A stretch of 64,000 nt of DNA from an uncultured Acidobacteriota bacterium. GTDB taxonomy: Bacteria > Acidobacteriota > Vicinamibacteria > Vicinamibacterales > 2-12-FULL-66-21. The DNA lies in NCBI GenBank assembly GCA_963810305.1, contig CAWEMY010000019.1, forward strand, positions 140,603 to 204,602, given 5' to 3'. The position numbers and the translations under genes are program-made. Shown here piece after piece: positions 2,722 through 64,000 of the stretch. The notes beneath the pieces were generated by a model. That model searched no databases. It had not been told where the DNA came from and was given only the letters and a program-made list of their open reading frames with translations. The stretch's first letter is position 1. Each line of letters begins with the position of its first letter.

Positions 2722-4014
2722 TCAGGGAGCGAACCATTTCGCCGCGACTGACTCCTGTCGAATAATCGTGTCCTCGCGCGCCGAGCCGGTGGAGATGATC
2801 GCCGCCGGAACGCCGGTGATCTCCTCGAGCCGCGAGACATACGCGCGCGCTTCCCGCGGGAGATCGTCGTACCTGCGGACGCCTGCGGTCGGCGACGTCC
2901 AGCCGGCGATGCTTTCGTACACCGGCTCGCAGGCTGCGAGCTGCGCGACATCGCCGGGCATCTCGGTGAGGCTCTCGCCGTGAATGCGATACGACGTGCA
3001 GACCTGCAGCTCGGGAAGCCCGTCGAGGACGTCGAGTTTGGTCAGCGCCAGCGCGTCGAGGCCATTTACCCGGACCGCGTATCGCACCGCCACCGCGTCG
3101 TACCAGCCGCACCGTCGAGGACGTCCGGTCACCGCACCGAATTCCTGTCCGCTCTCGCGCAGCCGGTTCCCGAGTTCTCCCGTCAGCTCGGAGGGCAGCG
3201 GTCCTTCACCGACGCGGGTCGTGTAAGCCTTCGCCACACCCAGGACGCCGTCGATGGCCCGCGGCGGAACACCGAGACCGGTGCAGACGCCTCCGACCGT
3301 GGCATTTGAAGACGTCACGTACGGGTATGTGCCGTGATCGATGTCGAGCAGCGTCCCCTGCGCCCCCTCGAACATGATCGGACGGCCCGCGGCACGTGCA
3401 CGGGAGAGGAACAGGGACACGTCGGTGACCCAGGGCGACATCCGCACCCAGGCGGCCTGCAGCTCGTCGAGCACCCTGGCCGGGTCCATCGTCGTATCCC
3501 CGATGATCCGGTTGCGCGCGGCGACGTTGTGCTCCACGGCCTCGCGCAATGCTTCGCGGTTGGCGAGGTCGCCGACCCGTACACCGCGGCGCGCGATCTT
3601 GTCTTCGTACGCCGGACCAATCCCGCGCGTTGTCGTCCCGATCTTTCGCTCGCCGCGCCGGGCCTCGCTCAAGAGATCCAGCTCGCGGTGATACGGCAGG
3701 ATCAGGTGCGCCTTATCGCTGATGATCAGCCTGTCGCCGATCGTCACACCTGCGGCAGACACCTCGTCGATCTCCGCGAAGAGCGCCTGCGGATCGACGA
3801 CGACACCGTTGCCGATGACGCAGGTGATGCCGTTGTGAAGAATCCCCGAGGGCAGGAGGCGCAGCACGAACTTCCGACCGTTGGCGTAAACGGTGTGCCC
3901 GGCGTTATGGCCGCCCTGATAACGGCACACGACGGAGAAGTTTGGCGTGAGCAGGTCGACGATCTTCCCTTTGCCTTCGTCTCCCCACTGTGCGCCGAGC
4001 ACTGCGATGTTCAT
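2722..4014 (-). CDS. purA: adenylosuccinate synthase
   Basis: 430 aa, starting 'MNIAVLGAQWGDEGKGKIVD', the canonical PurA P-loop. Full-length collinearity. Confidence 0.95.
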   Translation of the reverse strand: MNIAVLGAQWGDEGKGKIVDLLTPNFSVVCRYQGGHNAGHTVYANGRKFVLRLLPSGILHNGITCVIGNGVVVDPQALFAEIDEVSAAGVTIGDRLIISDKAHLILPYHRELDLLSEARRGERKIGTTTRGIGPAYEDKIARRGVRVGDLANREALREAVEHNVAARNRIIGDTTMDPARVLDELQAAWVRMSPWVTDVSLFLSRARAAGRPIMFEGAQGTLLDIDHGTYPYVTSSNATVGGVCTGLGVPPRAIDGVLGVAKAYTTRVGEGPLPSELTGELGNRLRESGQEFGAVTGRPRRCGWYDAVAVRYAVRVNGLDALALTKLDVLDGLPELQVCTSYRIHGESLTEMPGDVAQLAACEPVYESIAGWTSPTAGVRRYDDLPREARAYVSRLEEITGVPAAIISTGSAREDTIIRQESVAAKWFAP

Positions 4015-7311: not shown

Positions 7312-8483
7312 TGATCCCGGAACGTCCGTCGCTCGAGCGGCGGGTGCTGTCAGCGCTCGACGGCTCCCAGGGGAGCGGAGCCCGTATTCCCGTGCTGCTC
7401 GGTGGCTGCGGCGCAGGCAAATCTTCGGTTCTCCTCCGCCTTCGCGACCTCCTCGGCCGGACGTCGTCGCAGTACATCGATGTCGAGCGCGTCGCGACAA
7501 CCCCCGAACGCTTTCTAAAGACGGTGCGCGACGCCTCCACCTTCCCTGCCCATCCGTACGGTGGGGACGCCACCAACGGCGGAGGCGCGCGTGAGGCGTT
7601 CGACGCGTGGCTCGCGTTCCTCGATACCTCACGAGCGCCCGGTAATGCTCCGGCGACGTTCCTGCTGGATGAATTCCTCGAGCTGCGGACGTTCGAAAGT
7701 TTCCCAGGGCTTCGCGCGGTGCTGCGTGATCTGGTTGGCATGCTGGCGGCGAGTGGCAACCGGTTCGTGCTCACCACTCGATACGTCGCGCGGGCGCACC
7801 GATTGCTTCGCGATGCGCCGTCCCAGTTCGAAATCATTCACGTCGCCCCCTTGTCGCACGCCGAAATCCGCGCCACGGTCACCTCCGGCCACGAGATGCA
7901 CGACAAAGAGGACGACCAGACGCGTGAGGACCTGGTGCGCCTCGTCCACGCGCTGTCAGACGGCCGCCCGGCATACGCGCGATTGATCGCGGAGATGGCG
8001 GCGGTTATGGACGCGCGCGGCACTCACGATCCGGTGAGCGCGTTGGCTGCGCTCCTGGCGCCAGGAGGCGCCCTCTCGAACGCGTGCCGTTTCTGTTACG
8101 AGCTGCGCCTCCACCGCGCGCGCGGCTACGGCGCGCTGAAGGCAATCCTCGACGTGCTTGCCGAGGAGGAACCGCTCACGCTCACCGAGGTCGCCCTCCG
8201 CCTTCGCCGCACACCAGGCTCCACCAAGGACTACCTGTCGTGGCTCGAGGACGTCGACCTGATCGTCTCTCGGCAGAAGCGTTACAGCTTTGCCGACCCG
8301 ATGCTGCGCCTGTGGGTTCGGCTGCACTGCCGCCCGACCCCCCCGGGCGACGAAGAAATCGCCCGCGAGGTACACGCGTACGTCCTCTCGCATCTGCCGA
8401 TGGCTGAGCCCGCCCCCGCGCCCGCCCTCGCGCTCTCCACGCGTGAGACCGACAAGTCCTGGGGAATCATCGAAATCGACTAG
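7308..8483 (+). CDS. AAA-type ATPase with C-terminal winged-helix-like domain (archaeal-ATPase/DUF234-like)
   Basis: Walker A 'GGCGAGKSS' and Walker B 'FLLDEF'. The C-terminal '[30 protein letters not shown]' is wHTH-like. The start overlaps the hutU stop (ATGA). Confidence 0.6.
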
Positions 8484-8485
8484 GA

Positions 8486-9106
8486 CAGTGGGCAGTAATC
8501 AGTAACCAGTCATCAGTATTCAGTGCTCAATCGGATTGCTGAAAATGCAAACCGGCAGCGGCTCAGACGTTGCTGAAACATCAACGGCTGGGGGTTTGCT
8601 CCGCCGATTTCCTTGTAAATCGCTGGCATGGCATGTGTAGACGCACGCCATGGACAAATACGCCAATCTGAAGAAGAGGACGATGAAATTTGCCCTGGAC
8701 GTGACGCGATTCTGCCGGACCCTGCCACGTCACAACTACGAGGGCTGGCATGTCCAGAGCCAACTGTTTCGAGCTGCCACCGGCACCGCAGCGAACTACC
8801 GGGCCGCTTGTCGTTTCAAGTCGCAGCCCGATTTCATCTCCAAGATCGGCAGCGCGATCGAAGAGGCAGATGAATCGGATTTCTGGCTGGAGTTCTGCGT
8901 GGAGGCGGGGCTTACGAAGCGGGGTTCGGAAACCAAGCTTCGATCAGAGGCGGATGAACTGCTCGCGATCTTTCATCAATCGCGAACGACCGCTCGGGCA
9001 AACCTGGAAGCCGCCGCCAAATCACAGGCTACTTGACCACTGCCCCACAGATTACTGCCCACTGACTACTGATTATTGATTACTGGTTACTGATTACTGC
9101 CCACTG
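8486..9106. mobile_element. IR-bounded cassette carrying a four-helix-bundle gene (IVS-like / MITE-like unit)
   Basis: Perfect 25-bp inverted repeat: 8486-8510 CAGTGGGCAGTAATCAGTAACCAGT and 9082-9106, its exact reverse complement. The interior is visibly less G+C-rich than the flanks. Confidence 0.5.
8650..9036 (+). CDS. four-helix-bundle protein (23S rRNA intervening-sequence protein family)
   Basis: 128 aa. 'FALDVTRFCRTLP...QLFRAATGTAANYRAA...FISKIGSAIEEADESDFWLEF' is the characteristic pattern of this family. Confidence 0.8.
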   Translation: MDKYANLKKRTMKFALDVTRFCRTLPRHNYEGWHVQSQLFRAATGTAANYRAACRFKSQPDFISKIGSAIEEADESDFWLEFCVEAGLTKRGSETKLRSEADELLAIFHQSRTTARANLEAAAKSQAT

Positions 9107-9121
9107 ATTACTGATTACTGA

Positions 9122-10057
9122 TTACTGCGATCTGATTACTTCCAGCGCGAGCTTCGCGGCGTTCTGAGCTGCGTCTTTCTTGCTCTTGCCTTCGGCTTTG
9201 GCGAGCGGCTCGCCGCCGACCAGGACTTCGACTTCGAAGCGGCGGCGATGGGCGGGACCGATTTCGGCGGTGAGGCGGTACCCGGGCAGGCCTTTGCCTT
9301 GCTGCTGCAGCAGCTCCTGGAGCGCGGATTTGTAGTCCTCGGTGAAGCCGGCGCCGGTGCGGCTGGCTTCGTCGATCAGTTCCTGGAACTGGCGGCGGAG
9401 GAACGCGCGTACTGGTTCGAATCCGCCGTCCAGGTAGATGGCGGCGATCAGCGCCTCGTAGCAGTCGGCGATGATCGCGTGCTTGCGGCGGCCGCCGGTC
9501 TTCTCTTCGCCGCGGCCGAGGATCAGGTACTCGCCGAGATTGATGCGTTCGCCGAGCCGGGCGAGTGACGCCGCGGAGACCAGCGATGCACGGAGCTTCG
9601 ACTTCTGGCCCTCGTTGTGCTGCGGGAACTGCCGGAACAGGAGGTCGGCAATCACGAATCCGAGAATCGAGTCTCCGAGAAACTCCATCGATTCGTTGTC
9701 GAAGACGCCACCACTCGCGTCTTCATGGACGCGCGACCGATGTGTGAGCGCATGCTCGAGCAGCCCGCGGTCGCGGAACTTGTAGCCGATCGTTCGCTCG
9801 AGGGGTTCCAGCTCGCTGCCAAACGGTACGAGCTTGCCGCCGCGGCTGTCATCGCGGTGGCTCTCGATCAGCTGCTGCGCCTGATCCGCGTTCTCGGCGT
9901 TGACGGTGACGCGCAGCTCGTTGACCGACAGCGGGAACGGCGTGCGGGAAATATCGGCGTCGATCATGGTGGGGATGCCATGCGACTCCAGCAGCCCCCG
10001 CACGACGTCCGCTTCGATCGGCGACGGCGTGCGGAAGACGACGGTCAGATCACCCAT
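9122..10057 (-). CDS. rnc: ribonuclease III with N-terminal DUF2007-like extension
   Basis: RNase III signature 'ESMEFLGDSILG' and a C-terminal dsRBD ('KSKKDAAQNAAKLAL'). A preceding ~80-aa domain ('VVFRTPSPIEADVVRGLLESHGIP...') resembles DUF2007. Confidence 0.88.
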   Translation of the reverse strand: MGDLTVVFRTPSPIEADVVRGLLESHGIPTMIDADISRTPFPLSVNELRVTVNAENADQAQQLIESHRDDSRGGKLVPFGSELEPLERTIGYKFRDRGLLEHALTHRSRVHEDASGGVFDNESMEFLGDSILGFVIADLLFRQFPQHNEGQKSKLRASLVSAASLARLGERINLGEYLILGRGEEKTGGRRKHAIIADCYEALIAAIYLDGGFEPVRAFLRRQFQELIDEASRTGAGFTEDYKSALQELLQQQGKGLPGYRLTAEIGPAHRRRFEVEVLVGGEPLAKAEGKSKKDAAQNAAKLALEVIRSQ

Positions 10058-12246: not shown

Positions 12247-12360
12247 CAGGACGGGTGGGTGACGTGCGGACGTCCGACGTGCGACGTGCGGCGTGCTCAC
12301 GTCCGGACGTGCCACGTGGGAACGTGCTGACGTGCCACGTGCGAACGTGCTCACGTGCTA
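12247..12360. repeat. ACGTGC/CACGTG word array including a 23-bp tandem duplication
   Basis: 12306-12328 'gacgtgccacgtgggaacgtgct' is followed by 12329-12351 'gacgtgccacgtgcgaacgtgct' (1 mismatch). Further gacgtgc words lie upstream. Sits in a divergent intergenic region. Confidence 0.8.
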
Positions 12361-13874: not shown

Positions 13875-14057
13875 TCCGTTCCCTCCGTGTCCTCCGTCCG
13901 AGCCCCCAGCCCCGAGTCCCTAGCCCCGAGACGCGGGCCCCGAGCCGCGACTCCAGGGCAGCTATTTTGATGCGGATCGCGATTTTGAGGGGTCGAACCT
14001 AATTTCCGTGTTGAGGAGTGCCGAAATCATTGTACAAAGGACGCTCTCTTTCCGAAC

Positions 14058-14460: not shown

Positions 14461-14548
14461 CGTAGTCCAGCCCTTTAGGGCTGCCCATCGAAGGGCGTCC
14501 AGCCCTTTAGGGCTGCCCATCGAAGGGCGTCCAGCCCTTCAGGGCTGC
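14461..14548. repeat. REP-like cluster B (3 units, inverted relative to cluster A)
   Basis: 'cgtagtccagccctttagggctgcccatcgaagggcg' repeated. Lies between convergent ftsB and the response regulator. Confidence 0.9.
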
Positions 14549-23072: not shown

Positions 23073-24239
23073 TCACGACGGGGCGTGGAAGTTACCCTGC
23101 ACCACCGTCCCAACCCCGTGGTCGATCAAGGTGCCGCTTCCGCCCGCGATCGTCGTGTTTTTGGCGACCGCGCCAATTTCCACCGTGGCGACCGTCGGCG
23201 CGAACTGCTGAACATTGTTGCCTTGGAACTTCGTTGCGGACGGATTCCCGTCGGTGCCAGTCGGCTTGTCGAGTGGGAAGTCCGAGAAGATCACCGAGAT
23301 CGCGGCCCGACCGCGTCCCTTGATTCGATTCGCCCGGATCTCGTTGTCGTTCGCTGACCCCTGGACCTGGACGCCGGCGCTCTGCTGGCCGGGCAGCTTG
23401 CCGGGCGGCACTGACGCCACAATCTCGTTCTGACTGATTACGGCCTTCTTCGTGCCGCCGAGCCGCACAACGGCGGCGTTCTCGAAGCCGCAGTCGAGCT
23501 GATTCTTCTCTACCAGGTACTCCCCCGATCCGATCAAACGCAGGGCATCGACAAACTGGCCTGGCAAGCCACTCCGCCCCACCGTACCCGTCTCAACGAC
23601 GTTCCGTTCGACGCGCGCCGGACCCTTGACATCCCTCAGGTCCATCCCATGCGATGTGGTGCCGGTGATCCGGTTGTCGGCGATCAGCAGGTGGTCTGCC
23701 GGTCCGGTCATGATGATGCCGCCGACGCTGTCATCGGCCGTGCCGCCAAGCTGAAAGCGGTTCTCGAGAATCGAGACAGCGCCGACCGATGCGCCAGGCA
23801 GGTGGATGGCCAAGGCCGCCTTCTGAACACCGGCGGGCGTGGCGACCGCCGAGGGAGTCAAACCATCGACCTGGCATGTGGCGATTCTGACATTGCCCGC
23901 TCGCGCGACTCGTATGGCTGCGTTGTGTGGGTTCACGAAGCGAAGGCCTTCAATCGTGACATCGCCACCTGGCGCGGCAATGAGGAACACCGCCTGCTGC
24001 CCGCCTGCTGCGGCCGAACCGCCACCGACAATCGTGACACCCTGCCCCCGGATGGTCACTGAGCGGGTCACAAGGATCACCCGGCTGCCAAGCGGCCCCG
24101 GCAGACTCACATTCACGAAGTTGAAAGTGCCGTGTAGAACAAGCGTTCCACCGGCGTCGACCGCCTGCTGTACGGCGGGAACATCAACGGTGGCGTTGTT
24201 CTGACCGATTACGTCGCTCATACTGTCCTCCAGGCTCAA
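23073..24239 (-). CDS. right-handed parallel beta-helix repeat protein
   Basis: Repeated '..I.GN.I..' type turns throughout ('VTIEGLRFVNP', 'ILENRFQLGG', 'LIADNRITG', 'VISQNEIVA', 'NEIRANRIKG'). No signal peptide is evident. Confidence 0.65.
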   Translation of the reverse strand: MSLEDSMSDVIGQNNATVDVPAVQQAVDAGGTLVLHGTFNFVNVSLPGPLGSRVILVTRSVTIRGQGVTIVGGGSAAAGGQQAVFLIAAPGGDVTIEGLRFVNPHNAAIRVARAGNVRIATCQVDGLTPSAVATPAGVQKAALAIHLPGASVGAVSILENRFQLGGTADDSVGGIIMTGPADHLLIADNRITGTTSHGMDLRDVKGPARVERNVVETGTVGRSGLPGQFVDALRLIGSGEYLVEKNQLDCGFENAAVVRLGGTKKAVISQNEIVASVPPGKLPGQQSAGVQVQGSANDNEIRANRIKGRGRAAISVIFSDFPLDKPTGTDGNPSATKFQGNNVQQFAPTVATVEIGAVAKNTTIAGGSGTLIDHGVGTVVQGNFHAPS

Positions 24240-41616: not shown

Positions 41617-41753
41617 CAGCCCTAAAGGGCTGGACATCATTACGACGACGCGATGCGACAGCCCGTAGTCGCAGCCCTTCAGGGCTGCATTACGACGACG
41701 CGATGCGACAGCCGTAGTCCAGCCCTTTAGGGCTGCATCACGACGACGTCGCG
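41617..41753. repeat. REP-like cluster C (3 palindromes, ~45-bp period with repeated spacer 'attacgacgacgcgatgcgacagcc')
   Basis: Read directly from the sequence. Same palindrome core as clusters A, B and D. Confidence 0.9.
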
Positions 41754-45816: not shown

Positions 45817-45869
45817 AACAACTCCTAACGCCTAACGCCTAACGCACTAAACCGGAGTTCGCGCAGCGC

Positions 45870-51659: not shown

Positions 51660-51715
51660 TCACAGTCCTTATTGCAAGAGAATCAGCTGAAGAAGAAGGC
51701 CGGGCTGTCTCATTC

Positions 51716-51772
51716 CGTAGTCCAGCCCTTCAGGGCTGTCTCCTACCCGTAGTCCAGCCCTTTAGGGCTGTC
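51716..51772. repeat. REP-like cluster D (2 units)
   Basis: 'cgtagtccagcccttcagggctgtctc' occurs twice. Lies between korA and sucD. Confidence 0.9.
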
Positions 51773-51799
51773 TCGAGTCGTAAACCAACCCTTAGGAAA

Positions 51800-61990: not shown

Positions 61991-62776
61991 GTGCCCCTCG
62001 TTTCCAGCCCCGGGCCCCCTGTTAGTTCCGGTACTTTCTCCGTCGTCGCCATCATCCCCGCGCGTTACGACTCGACTCGCCTCCCTGGAAAAGCGCTCGC
62101 CGATATCGGCGGTCGGCCGATGATCGAGCACGTCTATCGCCGCGCCAGTGCCGCCCGCTCCGTCGGTGTTGTCATCGTCGCCACCGACGACGACCGGATT
62201 CGGGACGCCGTCGAAGCGTTCGGCGGCCGCGCACAAATGACATCACGCGCACATCAGAGCGGCACCGACCGGCTCGCGGAAATTGCCGCAACCCTGACAT
62301 CGGATCTCGTCGTCAACGTCCAGGGGGACGAACCGTTGATCGAGGCGTCGATGGTCGACGATGCGATCGCAGTGTTTCGCGCCGACCCGTCGCTCGAGAT
62401 GAGCACGGTGCGTCGTCGCATCGACGATCCGGCGGACCTCCGGAACCCGAACGTGACGAAGGTGGTGGTGGACCGCGAGGGGAACGCGCTGTATTTTTCG
62501 CGGGCGCCGATTCCATTCACCAGGGACGGATCCCCGCCCGCGCCGGCATGGAGGCACATCGGCCTCTACGTGTATCGCCGGGAAACGCTGCTGCGGTTGA
62601 CGGCCTTGCCGCCGACGGCGATGGAGCAATCCGAGGCGCTGGAGCAACTTCGCGCGCTCGAGCACGGCATCCGGATCAAGACGGTCGAGACCCCGTATGA
62701 ATGCATCGGTGTCGACACTCCGGAAGATCTCGAGCGCGTCAGACGACAACTTTTGATTCCTACGTCTAACTCCTAA
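61991..62776 (+). CDS. kdsB: 3-deoxy-manno-octulosonate cytidylyltransferase
   Basis: 'AIIPARYDSTRLPGKALADIGGRPMI' and 'VNVQGDEP'. The ORF opens at 61874, but the in-frame GTG at 61991 gives a normal-length N-terminus. Confidence 0.85.
   Translation: MPLVSSPGPPVSSGTFSVVAIIPARYDSTRLPGKALADIGGRPMIEHVYRRASAARSVGVVIVATDDDRIRDAVEAFGGRAQMTSRAHQSGTDRLAEIAATLTSDLVVNVQGDEPLIEASMVDDAIAVFRADPSLEMSTVRRRIDDPADLRNPNVTKVVVDREGNALYFSRAPIPFTRDGSPPAPAWRHIGLYVYRRETLLRLTALPPTAMEQSEALEQLRALEHGIRIKTVETPYECIGVDTPEDLERVRRQLLIPTSNS

Positions 62777-64000
<1,224 letters not shown>

Follow-up and report, generated by a model that had tools for sequence, protein, structure and literature searches.

A 64-kb window (the whole stretch of 64,000 nucleotides analysed here) from an uncultured Acidobacteriota bacterium carries, between two convergent genes, a cassette in which a gene for a four-helix-bundle (4HB) protein is enclosed by inverted arrays of heptamer words (Table 1). 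One of the two flanking genes encodes a protein of 391 residues, referred to here as A391, and the other, rnc, encodes RNase III. The TAG stop codon of A391 lies 2 nt ahead of the left arm, whose units read, in order, CAGTGGG, CAGTAAT, CAGTAAC, CAGTCAT, CAGTATT and CAGTGCT. The right array is of the GATTACT type, which corresponds to TTACTGA, a variant of the published repeat TAACTGA; it outlasts the left one in length and extends into rnc, with tandem copies of TGATTAC at 9105-9125 and another copy at 9133-9139. The run of these copies into the last codons and TAA stop of rnc is as described in the initial annotation of this DNA, which also reported the 4HB open reading frame (ORF) enclosed by a perfect 25-bp inverted repeat. 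The repeat is exact, the 25-nt core of the left arm (CAGTGGGCAGTAATCAGTAACCAGT) being the reverse complement of that of the right array, and the ORF matches its family profiles above their cutoffs. The arms are thus a genuine inverted repeat, but not one of unique sequence, since both consist of heptamer arrays. The weaker complementarity noted inward of the core is likewise present (7 of the next 10 nt match), and taken together the arms are complementary over 49 nt at 86%.

The repeat lies far beyond chance. Its ungapped inverted-repeat score is 30, against 9-11 in displaced window pairs, and the word array CAGTAATCAGTAA, with at most 2 mismatches allowed, matches 10 times within the arms and just once elsewhere in the 64-kb window, as an isolated match (23431-23443), against a chance expectation of 0.15 matches. 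There is a single 4HB gene in the window and both CAGTAAT arrays belong to its cassette. Tandem Repeats Finder reports a period of 7 at 8493-8524 and at 9050-9127. The G+C content is 0.50-0.60 within the cassette versus 0.65-0.70 outside it, in agreement with the lower G+C content that had been noticed for the interior. In the minimum-free-energy RNA fold predicted for positions 8470-9150, the arms are base-paired with each other (-268 kcal/mol, z = -7.2).

A few conventional identities for the element were considered and rejected. An intrinsic terminator is not indicated, as the arms have no U-tract; a consensus scan of 8300-9300 found no terminator-like site in the arms, its sole two matches being located at 9155-9175, inside rnc. 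An Rfam search of the window at gathering thresholds returned just a tRNA and no rRNA, and the single snoRNA match for the region at E <= 1 (21 bits) was dismissed as meaningless. The earlier suggestion of a miniature inverted-repeat transposable element (MITE) did not hold up either: the unit codes for a protein with a conserved ORF, no target-site duplication or other direct repeat is visible at its outer borders, and one copy is present in the 64-kb window.

Table 1. Features of the 4HB cassette and its flanking genes (positions in the window)
Feature	Position	Strand	Remarks
A391, upstream neighbour, 391 aa	7308..8483	+	Library matches weak, AAA-ATPase-like only
Segment absent from relative L083	8484..9141		658 bp; presence/absence polymorphism
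Left arm, ~6-7 heptamers CAGTNNN	8486..8534		Perfect 25-nt core at 8486-8510
Interior (leader and 4HB gene)	8527..9071		Inverted with respect to close relative L082
Leader, left arm to start codon	8535..8649	+	Small internal hairpin 8547-8559 / 8587-8599
4HB gene, 128 aa	8650..9036	+	PF05635, TIGR02436, AlphaFold2 model
Right array, ~14-15 heptamers NNNACTG	9039..9140		9058-9106 pairs with left arm; perfect core 9082-9106
rnc 3' end, last six codons and TAA (EVIRSQ*)	9122..9142	-	Heptamer-array sequence
rnc, convergent with A391	9122..10057	-	RNase III with N-terminal DUF2007

The four-helix-bundle protein

The 128-residue protein belongs to the S23p family, named for ORFs of 23S rRNA intervening sequences (IVSs), with scores of 47.3 bits to PF05635 (cutoff 33.8) and 71.4 bits to TIGR02436 (cutoff 24). 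Its AlphaFold2 monomer model (pLDDT 94.5) has four helices, and the closest structures identified by Foldseek are those with PDB identifiers 2RLD and 2GSC (TM-scores of 0.73-0.90), the former of which is also found by phmmer with an E-value of 4e-10. The crystal entries contain 5 chains. To our knowledge, this family, although structures such as 2RLD and 2GSC have been solved, has no known function. The next-best structural matches are to Avd, a protein of diversity-generating retroelements (DGRs; PDB identifiers 4DWL and 8UB7), with TM-scores of ~0.65-0.8. We saw neither a catalytic motif in the protein nor a partner gene nearby, and a search of a phage collection with the protein gave no homologue at E <= 1e-3. 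In comparison with the close relative L082, identity is 91% for the protein and 85.6% for the DNA; this higher conservation of the protein indicates that the 4HB gene is under purifying selection.

Inverted heptamer arrays bracket the family across phyla

A survey of one genome per GTDB species yielded 80 loci encoding relatives of the window protein, from Acidobacteriota (including Vicinamibacterales), Bacteroidota, Chloroflexota, Verrucomicrobiota, Nitrospira, Planctomycetes, phyla of the Candidate Phyla Radiation (CPR) and others. For each locus, the 350 nt preceding the gene were compared with the 350 nt following it to find the best inverted repeat between the two flanks, and displaced window pairs from the same loci served as control. 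The median score from flank to flank is 19 versus 9 in the displaced controls, and 68 of the 78 4HB loci (87%) lie above the 95th percentile of the controls, which is 11 across the 80 loci. Taking the best ungapped stem at each locus, the median is 24 matched bp, and 52/77 loci reach at least 20 bp; a stem of this length would be adequate for an RNase III substrate, as had been anticipated for the window. From end to end, the bracketed unit measures a median of 452 nt. Thus, other 4HB genes do have their own inverted word repeats, as the initial annotation had suggested they might, and bracketing by inverted arrays is the norm for the 4HB family across phyla.

The arms are also alike in construction. 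A period of 7 is seen in the upstream arm of 50/78 loci and in the downstream arm of 49/78 (period 8 in 8 and 11, respectively), versus 25 of the 445 control windows with period 7. Most arrays combine a constant core of 4 nt with three variable positions, the commonest being (GATTNNN)n upstream and (NNNAATC)n downstream, and the core has a fixed polarity: 28 loci have GATT upstream and 1 has it downstream, and AATC is downstream in 29 and upstream in 1.

The cassette nearly always runs in the direction of its upstream gene and takes up the space between the neighbouring genes. Of 74 loci, 69 have an upstream neighbour oriented like the 4HB gene; with the orientations of the upstream and downstream neighbours given relative to the 4HB gene, the arrangement is (+,+) in 50 loci, (+,-) in 19, (-,+) in 3 and (-,-) in 2, i.e., tandem in 50, convergent in 19 and otherwise in 5. 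The spacers around the gene have medians of 95 nt upstream and 66 nt downstream. The same layout is found inside operons on complete plasmids of the cultured cyanobacteria Planktothrix and Gloeocapsa, and the bracketing is therefore not an assembly artefact. In the p1 plasmid of Planktothrix agardhii (L165), the cassette lies in sense between drmD and an MmeI-like gene, and in the plasmid pGLO7428.03 of Gloeocapsa PCC 7428 (L166) it lies in sense between DUF1156 and Swt1-HEPN genes. Both of these cassettes sit within defence-type operons. A further instance can be read from published data on Xanthomonas, where a GGGAATC array overlaps the start of XCC0516, beside bccP (PMC4692102, supplement; the authors do not comment on it). 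XCC0516 is a 4HB family member that has been crystallised.

Additional heptamer arrays, many of them gene-less inverted pairs, are present in 28 of the 80 4HB loci, and some of these (L036, L049 and L079) consist of cassette-arm words. In L049, an identical array of 25 nt (GATTTATGATTTTAGATTTTAGATT) occurs three times within 2 kb (1208-1232, 1390-1424 and 2959-2983), and one of these copies is the upstream arm of the cassette; this triple occurrence suggests copying of arrays rather than independent slippage. Paralogues within a genome (L025 and L071) have different arm words, and the identity of the 4HB proteins is 54.3% within word classes versus 53.0% between them. At the resolution used, there is no covariation of 4HB protein similarity with the class of arm word.

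Gain, loss and inversion at the A391/rnc locus

A metagenome scan with A391 gave 80 loci with a conserved convergent A391/rnc pair; the relatives of the window locus are soil metagenome contigs. The hairpin site in their A391/rnc spacers is found in four states: empty, occupied by a gene-less heptamer hairpin, occupied by a 4HB gene in either orientation, and, once, occupied by another gene. In some loci the two genes abut or overlap, and in others an ordinary GC-rich hairpin separates them (L095, L098, L104 and L158). The gene-less hairpins are formed by inverted heptamer arrays whose word is different in almost every relative (GCTGAAC, TGCTGAA, AGTCAGA, GGACGAA, ATCCCAA and GCTTCGG, among others). 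Among the loci whose arms enclose a 4HB gene, one (L147) has a gene from a different subfamily. In L143, inverted TTAGGAA arrays surround a gene for a 193-residue protein of the LOG family (PF03641, 146 bits) instead of a 4HB gene, and thus the arms can hold other cargo. In L092, the spacer of 418 nt has inverted arms of 63 nt, built of a 14-nt unit (GGAGGATCGGAGAC), around 284 nt with no convincing ORF, an arrangement that may represent a decayed cassette.

Presence/absence polymorphism is seen between close relatives. L083, which has no cassette, is 93% identical to the cassette-bearing L081 in the nucleotide sequence of A391. Homology between L083 and the window ends at 8483 and restarts at 9142, and in between 658 bp are replaced by 53 bp containing a different hairpin of 25 bp with GCTGAAG-type words. 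Similarly, in a second clade, L094 has the same arms (TGCTGAATGCTGAGTGCTGAATGCTGAA) as its cassette-bearing relatives without the 452-bp interior. The 28-nt array TGCTGAATGCTGAGTGCTGAATGCTGAA is identical in the left arms of L094 and L099 and differs by one base in L120, while the adjacent A391 genes of L094 and L099/L120 are just ~75% identical in nucleotides; sharing of the array in spite of this divergence points to its conservation or lateral exchange. The insertion polymorphism predicted for orthologous loci is thus borne out by these empty sites, and together with the protein-coding nature of the flanking genes and the bracketing of other family members it speaks for the earlier proposal of an IVS-like cassette outside rRNA.

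The interior is found in both orientations, and here too the breakpoints fall in the arms. The A391 genes of the window and L082 share 90% identity and the flanks of the two loci are colinear, but positions 8527-9071 of the window align with the opposite strand of L082, at 85.6% identity over 548 nt. In six relatives (L081, L082, L163, L168, L169 and the P0006 locus) the 4HB gene is co-directional with rnc; compared with these, the window is alone in having the gene run with A391. An independent inversion has occurred in the second clade, where L121 is turned the opposite way from L099 and L120. Through all this the arm words turn over completely while the 4HB gene is inherited: CAGTAAT in the window is replaced by TAACTGA in L081, AATTCTC in L168 and GCAATNA in L163. 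Recombination between the arms, or slippage from one to the other, is the simplest explanation of inversion and loss.

Relation to known elements

The ORF-bearing IVSs of 23S rRNA, known from Leptospira and Coxiella burnetii, are the closest parallel. They encode proteins of the same S23p (PF05635) family, and their ORF likewise lies within an inverted-repeat stem of ~25-30 bp; the long terminal stem of an IVS has its equivalent here in the 25 perfect base pairs, or 49 nt at 86%, formed by the arms. The Coxiella IVS combines an S23p ORF with a 28-bp terminal stem and tandem copies of the heptamer GACAGAT, and is removed by RNase III, which cuts where the first of these copies begins (PMC4990558). 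The number of tandem heptamers in its 5' part varies among strains, and the element is embedded in a host transcript, where it occupies the loop of a helix that was there before it (PMC4990558), all of which resembles the cassettes described above. In contrast to the IVSs, the window element lies between protein-coding genes and not in a helix of 23S rRNA, its arms are long heptamer arrays, and excision by RNase III is a prediction for it. Also, inversion and presence/absence polymorphism, documented here for the A391/rnc cassette, are undescribed for IVSs.

Bacterial heptamer repeats have been on record since 1990, first as short tandemly repeated repetitive (STRR) sequences and later as TAACTGA and GGGAATC repeats. 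They are abundant, intergenic and often arranged as inverted pairs (PMC4679880, PMC4692102, PMC2700814), of which Xanthomonas has 70-75 per genome (PMC4692102). The arms share with STRR, with the TAACTGA repeats of Beggiatoaceae, Cyanobacteria and Bacteroidetes, and with the GGGAATC/GGGGATT repeats of Xanthomonas and Nostoc the intergenic location, the tandem heptamers, and the constant core with variable positions; the arms of L081 are (TAACTGA)n itself, and the TTACTGA variant in the window is within one base of it. Unlike the arms, which surround one specific gene family, the published repeats have been treated as regulatory or G-quadruplex elements and tied to no protein family. In the full-text literature, with subscription literature and database family descriptions outside its scope, our search turned up articles dealing with the repeats by themselves, but no link between 4HB/S23p proteins and heptamers beyond the note on the Coxiella IVS. 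ORF-bearing 23S IVSs, S23p structures, Avd and heptamer repeats are already known, and what is new here is an IVS-like cassette in mRNA operons and 3' hairpins.

Two further systems invite comparison. Repetitive extragenic palindromes (REPs), their paired forms (REPINs) and the REP-associated tyrosine transposases (RAYTs) also present a single gene between inverted copies of a short repeat, along with gene-less inverted pairs elsewhere in the genome; however, the 4HB protein is no transposase, the words vary within a genome, and the repeat is a tandem array and not a single palindrome. Avd of the DGRs has the same fold as the 4HB protein, but the sequence identity is 10-16%. A role as a DGR component was rejected, as there is no reverse transcriptase or template/variable repeat pair nearby, judging from the neighbours in the syntenic L081 (CutA1, a pyridoxal phosphate (PLP) enzyme, HAMP-SpoIIE, RNase III, A391, urocanase and HAL).

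Proposed mechanism and alternatives

The explanation that we favour, with moderate confidence, is that the window carries an IVS-like 4HB cassette in the loop of a 3'-end hairpin, which is transcribed by read-through, pairs its arms and is cut by RNase III. The S23p/Avd-like gene occupies the loop of a hairpin that follows the A391 stop codon and whose stem is made of inverted arrays of the TAACTGA/STRR kind. Lacking a promoter of its own, the gene would be expressed by read-through from a neighbour, viz., A391 in the window and rnc in the six relatives. In the transcript, the arms would pair into a double-stranded RNA stem of ~25-49 bp, which, judged by its length and complementarity, is likely a substrate of RNase III, and cleavage would free the 4HB mRNA from the host message, as happens in ORF-bearing 23S rRNA IVSs. 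At the DNA level, the same arms would act as recombination substrates through which the interior is inverted or deleted. Insertion at gene ends may be rendered tolerable by the arrays themselves: since 7 is not a multiple of 3, a stop-bearing array closes any incoming frame within three units. Such closing of frames, with stops in all three of them, has been pointed out for TAACTGA repeats (PMC4679880).

Several observations weigh against this mechanism. Mismatches in the arms comprise 66 G-U and 66 A-C pairs on the sense strand, along with 195 of transversion type; there is thus no G-U excess and no signal of selection on the pairing of the sense-strand RNA, and homogenisation at the DNA level could instead be what keeps the arms complementary. 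The polarity of the arms in the window clade (AATC/CAGT upstream) is opposite to that of the family majority, and the clade belongs to a minority type with a CAGT core. Finally, the lack of a sigma-70-like promoter in 8300-9300, which speaks for read-through, is the result of a crude sigma-70 consensus scan that the promoters of this phylum may escape.

The main rival is a protein-repeat system comparable to RAYT/REPIN, in which the 4HB pentamer, by itself or together with a polymerase or, as in DGRs, a reverse transcriptase, would bind the heptamer words as DNA or RNA and maintain, spread or regulate hairpins throughout the genome, its own arms being cognate sites for autoregulation or mobility. 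We consider this improbable. The tight association of gene and array across phyla, the conserved 4-nt core with its fixed polarity to the interior, reminiscent of oriented sites in terminal inverted repeats, and the extra arrays in 28/80 4HB loci, some with cassette-arm words, are all consistent with it; its structural relative Avd contacts RNA in the DGR ribonucleoprotein, and a repeat-binding protein, possibly the mobile part, was postulated by MacGregor in 2015 (PMC4679880). A dedicated word-binding protein is difficult to reconcile, however, with the different words carried by paralogues of one genome, with the complete turnover of words during inheritance of the gene (as in the window, L168 and L163), and with protein identities that hardly differ within and between word classes. 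The protein also has no catalytic motif and no partner gene nearby, and a LOG-family gene can fill the same arms. Broadening this proposal, 4HB proteins may be the trans-acting partner of the bacterial heptamer repeats at large (STRR, TAACTGA, GGGAATC and others) in a widespread two-part system, which we regard as still more doubtful. If it were true, hairpins would be seeded in transcribed spacers and rRNA helices, where the 4HB pentamer would bind, extend or move them or control their processing, possibly with a polymerase partner as Avd has in a reverse transcriptase, and the 23S rRNA IVSs would be the first-noticed members of a larger class of stem-bracketed operon cassettes.

A simpler alternative, and an unlikely one in our judgement, is that the hairpin is an ordinary 3'-end terminator or stabiliser made of slippage-prone repeats, that the 4HB gene entered its loop once as a passive, selfish passenger, that the arms play no part related to the gene, and that RNase III is irrelevant. 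The site is indeed the convergent 3' end of two genes, where some relatives have plain GC-rich hairpins and gene-less heptamer hairpins are common (with a period-7 array in 24 of 61 loci), and the arms show no G-U excess. Against this, 87% of the 4HB genes are bracketed in unrelated contexts and phyla, versus ~2-5% of control positions, 50 of the 52 cassettes in same-strand gene contexts are co-directional with the operon, and the arms have neither a U-tract nor a terminator-like site.

The adjacency to rnc is incidental

A more specific possibility concerns rnc, whose product matches TIGR02191 at 243 bits. This product has an N-terminal DUF2007 domain (33.6 bits), which is kept in the relatives L081 and L163; an exact look-up of the RNase III sequence of the window gave no identical record. 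The initial annotation raised a functional or DNA-targeting link between the cassette and rnc, and in such a reading the long stem in which the rnc message ends, and which overlaps its stop codon, would be an autoregulatory target of RNase III, or else the element would target rnc-adjacent DNA. This is very improbable. It is true that in the six relatives the 4HB gene immediately follows rnc in the same direction, that the right array overlaps the stop or the last codons of rnc in the window and in several relatives, and that A391/rnc spacers are enriched in arrays, with a period of 7 in 24 of the 61 orthologous loci versus 9 arrays in the remaining 333 kb. The C-terminal tail and stop of rnc are in fact supplied by whichever arm is present, giving endings such as VISGQ*, AILRGEG* and AILNAEG* in relatives. 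However, the orthologous loci share ancestry and a single ancestral origin can account for the enrichment, and rnc is adjacent in none of the other 80 4HB loci. Moreover, distant relatives have a globin gene between A391 and rnc, and in these the hairpin remains at -2 to +6 nt from the A391 stop, ~370 nt from rnc. The site is thus a feature of the A391 3' end, and its contact with rnc is fortuitous. Targeting or autoregulation of rnc as a general rule is largely refuted by the lack of adjacency and by these globin-bearing loci; the adjacency is a matter of descent in this clade and no part of the mechanism.

It is just as improbable that the cassette is a regulated invertible switch (inverton), with arms that serve as sites for a site-specific invertase and a flip that toggles the 4HB gene or its neighbour. 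Such a switch would suit the finding that, in each of two clades independently, close relatives differ in the orientation of the interior and the breakpoints lie in the arms. However, inversion was observed between relatives only, no recombinase is among the neighbouring genes or within ~5 kb, and the orientation is fixed in sub-lineages (six relatives one way and the window the other). Moreover, the 4HB gene runs with one of its two convergent neighbours whichever way it is turned, so that homologous recombination of the arms from time to time suffices to explain the inversions.

Implications

The function of the S23p family and the origin and binding partner of heptamer repeats are two old puzzles that may be one. 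The 4HB genes are bracketed across phyla, lie in sense orientation in operons, and are gained, lost and flipped at hairpin loops. Two hypotheses arise from this, viz., that RNase III excises an 'intervening sequence' from mRNA and that 4HB proteins bind heptamer arrays, and culturable carriers are available in Xanthomonas campestris (XCC0516, beside bccP), Gloeocapsa PCC 7428, Planktothrix and Bacteroides thetaiotaomicron (BT_0352). The cassettes also have practical consequences. They break metagenome assemblies, many of the contigs that carry them being ~1 kb long, and because they occur inside defence operons, guilt-by-association screens may wrongly assign them a CRISPR or defence function. 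Insertion into defence operons may explain the listing of '23S rRNA IVP' among CRISPR-associated domains (PMC10910872).

Other repeats in the window

The window has several other heptamer repeats. A gene-less inverted pair, in which words of the AACTCCA/AACTCCT type (2631-2661) face three copies of GAGTTAG (2695-2715) across a loop of ~33 nt, lies in the spacer of the minus-strand ORFs 1819-2604 and 2722-4014 and has the architecture of cassette arms without the gene. Short heptamer arrays are found in further spacers (1962-1990, 12261-12350, 13898-13950, 45820-45850 and 62766-62783), with the words CATCCCG, GACGTGC, AGCCCCG, CTAACGC and CTAACTC; the last of these arrays lies shortly ahead of an ATG at ~62793. 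Words with a CTAAC core recur at three sites, namely 2631-2715, 45820-45850 and 62766-62783.

A palindrome, CAGCCCTNNAGGGCTG, occurs in ten copies where ~0.01 would be expected by chance. The copies are arranged in tandem units of 32 or 48 nt in four clusters (1813-1893, 14465-14548, 41617-41748 and 51702-51774), and this separate repeat family looks REP-like.

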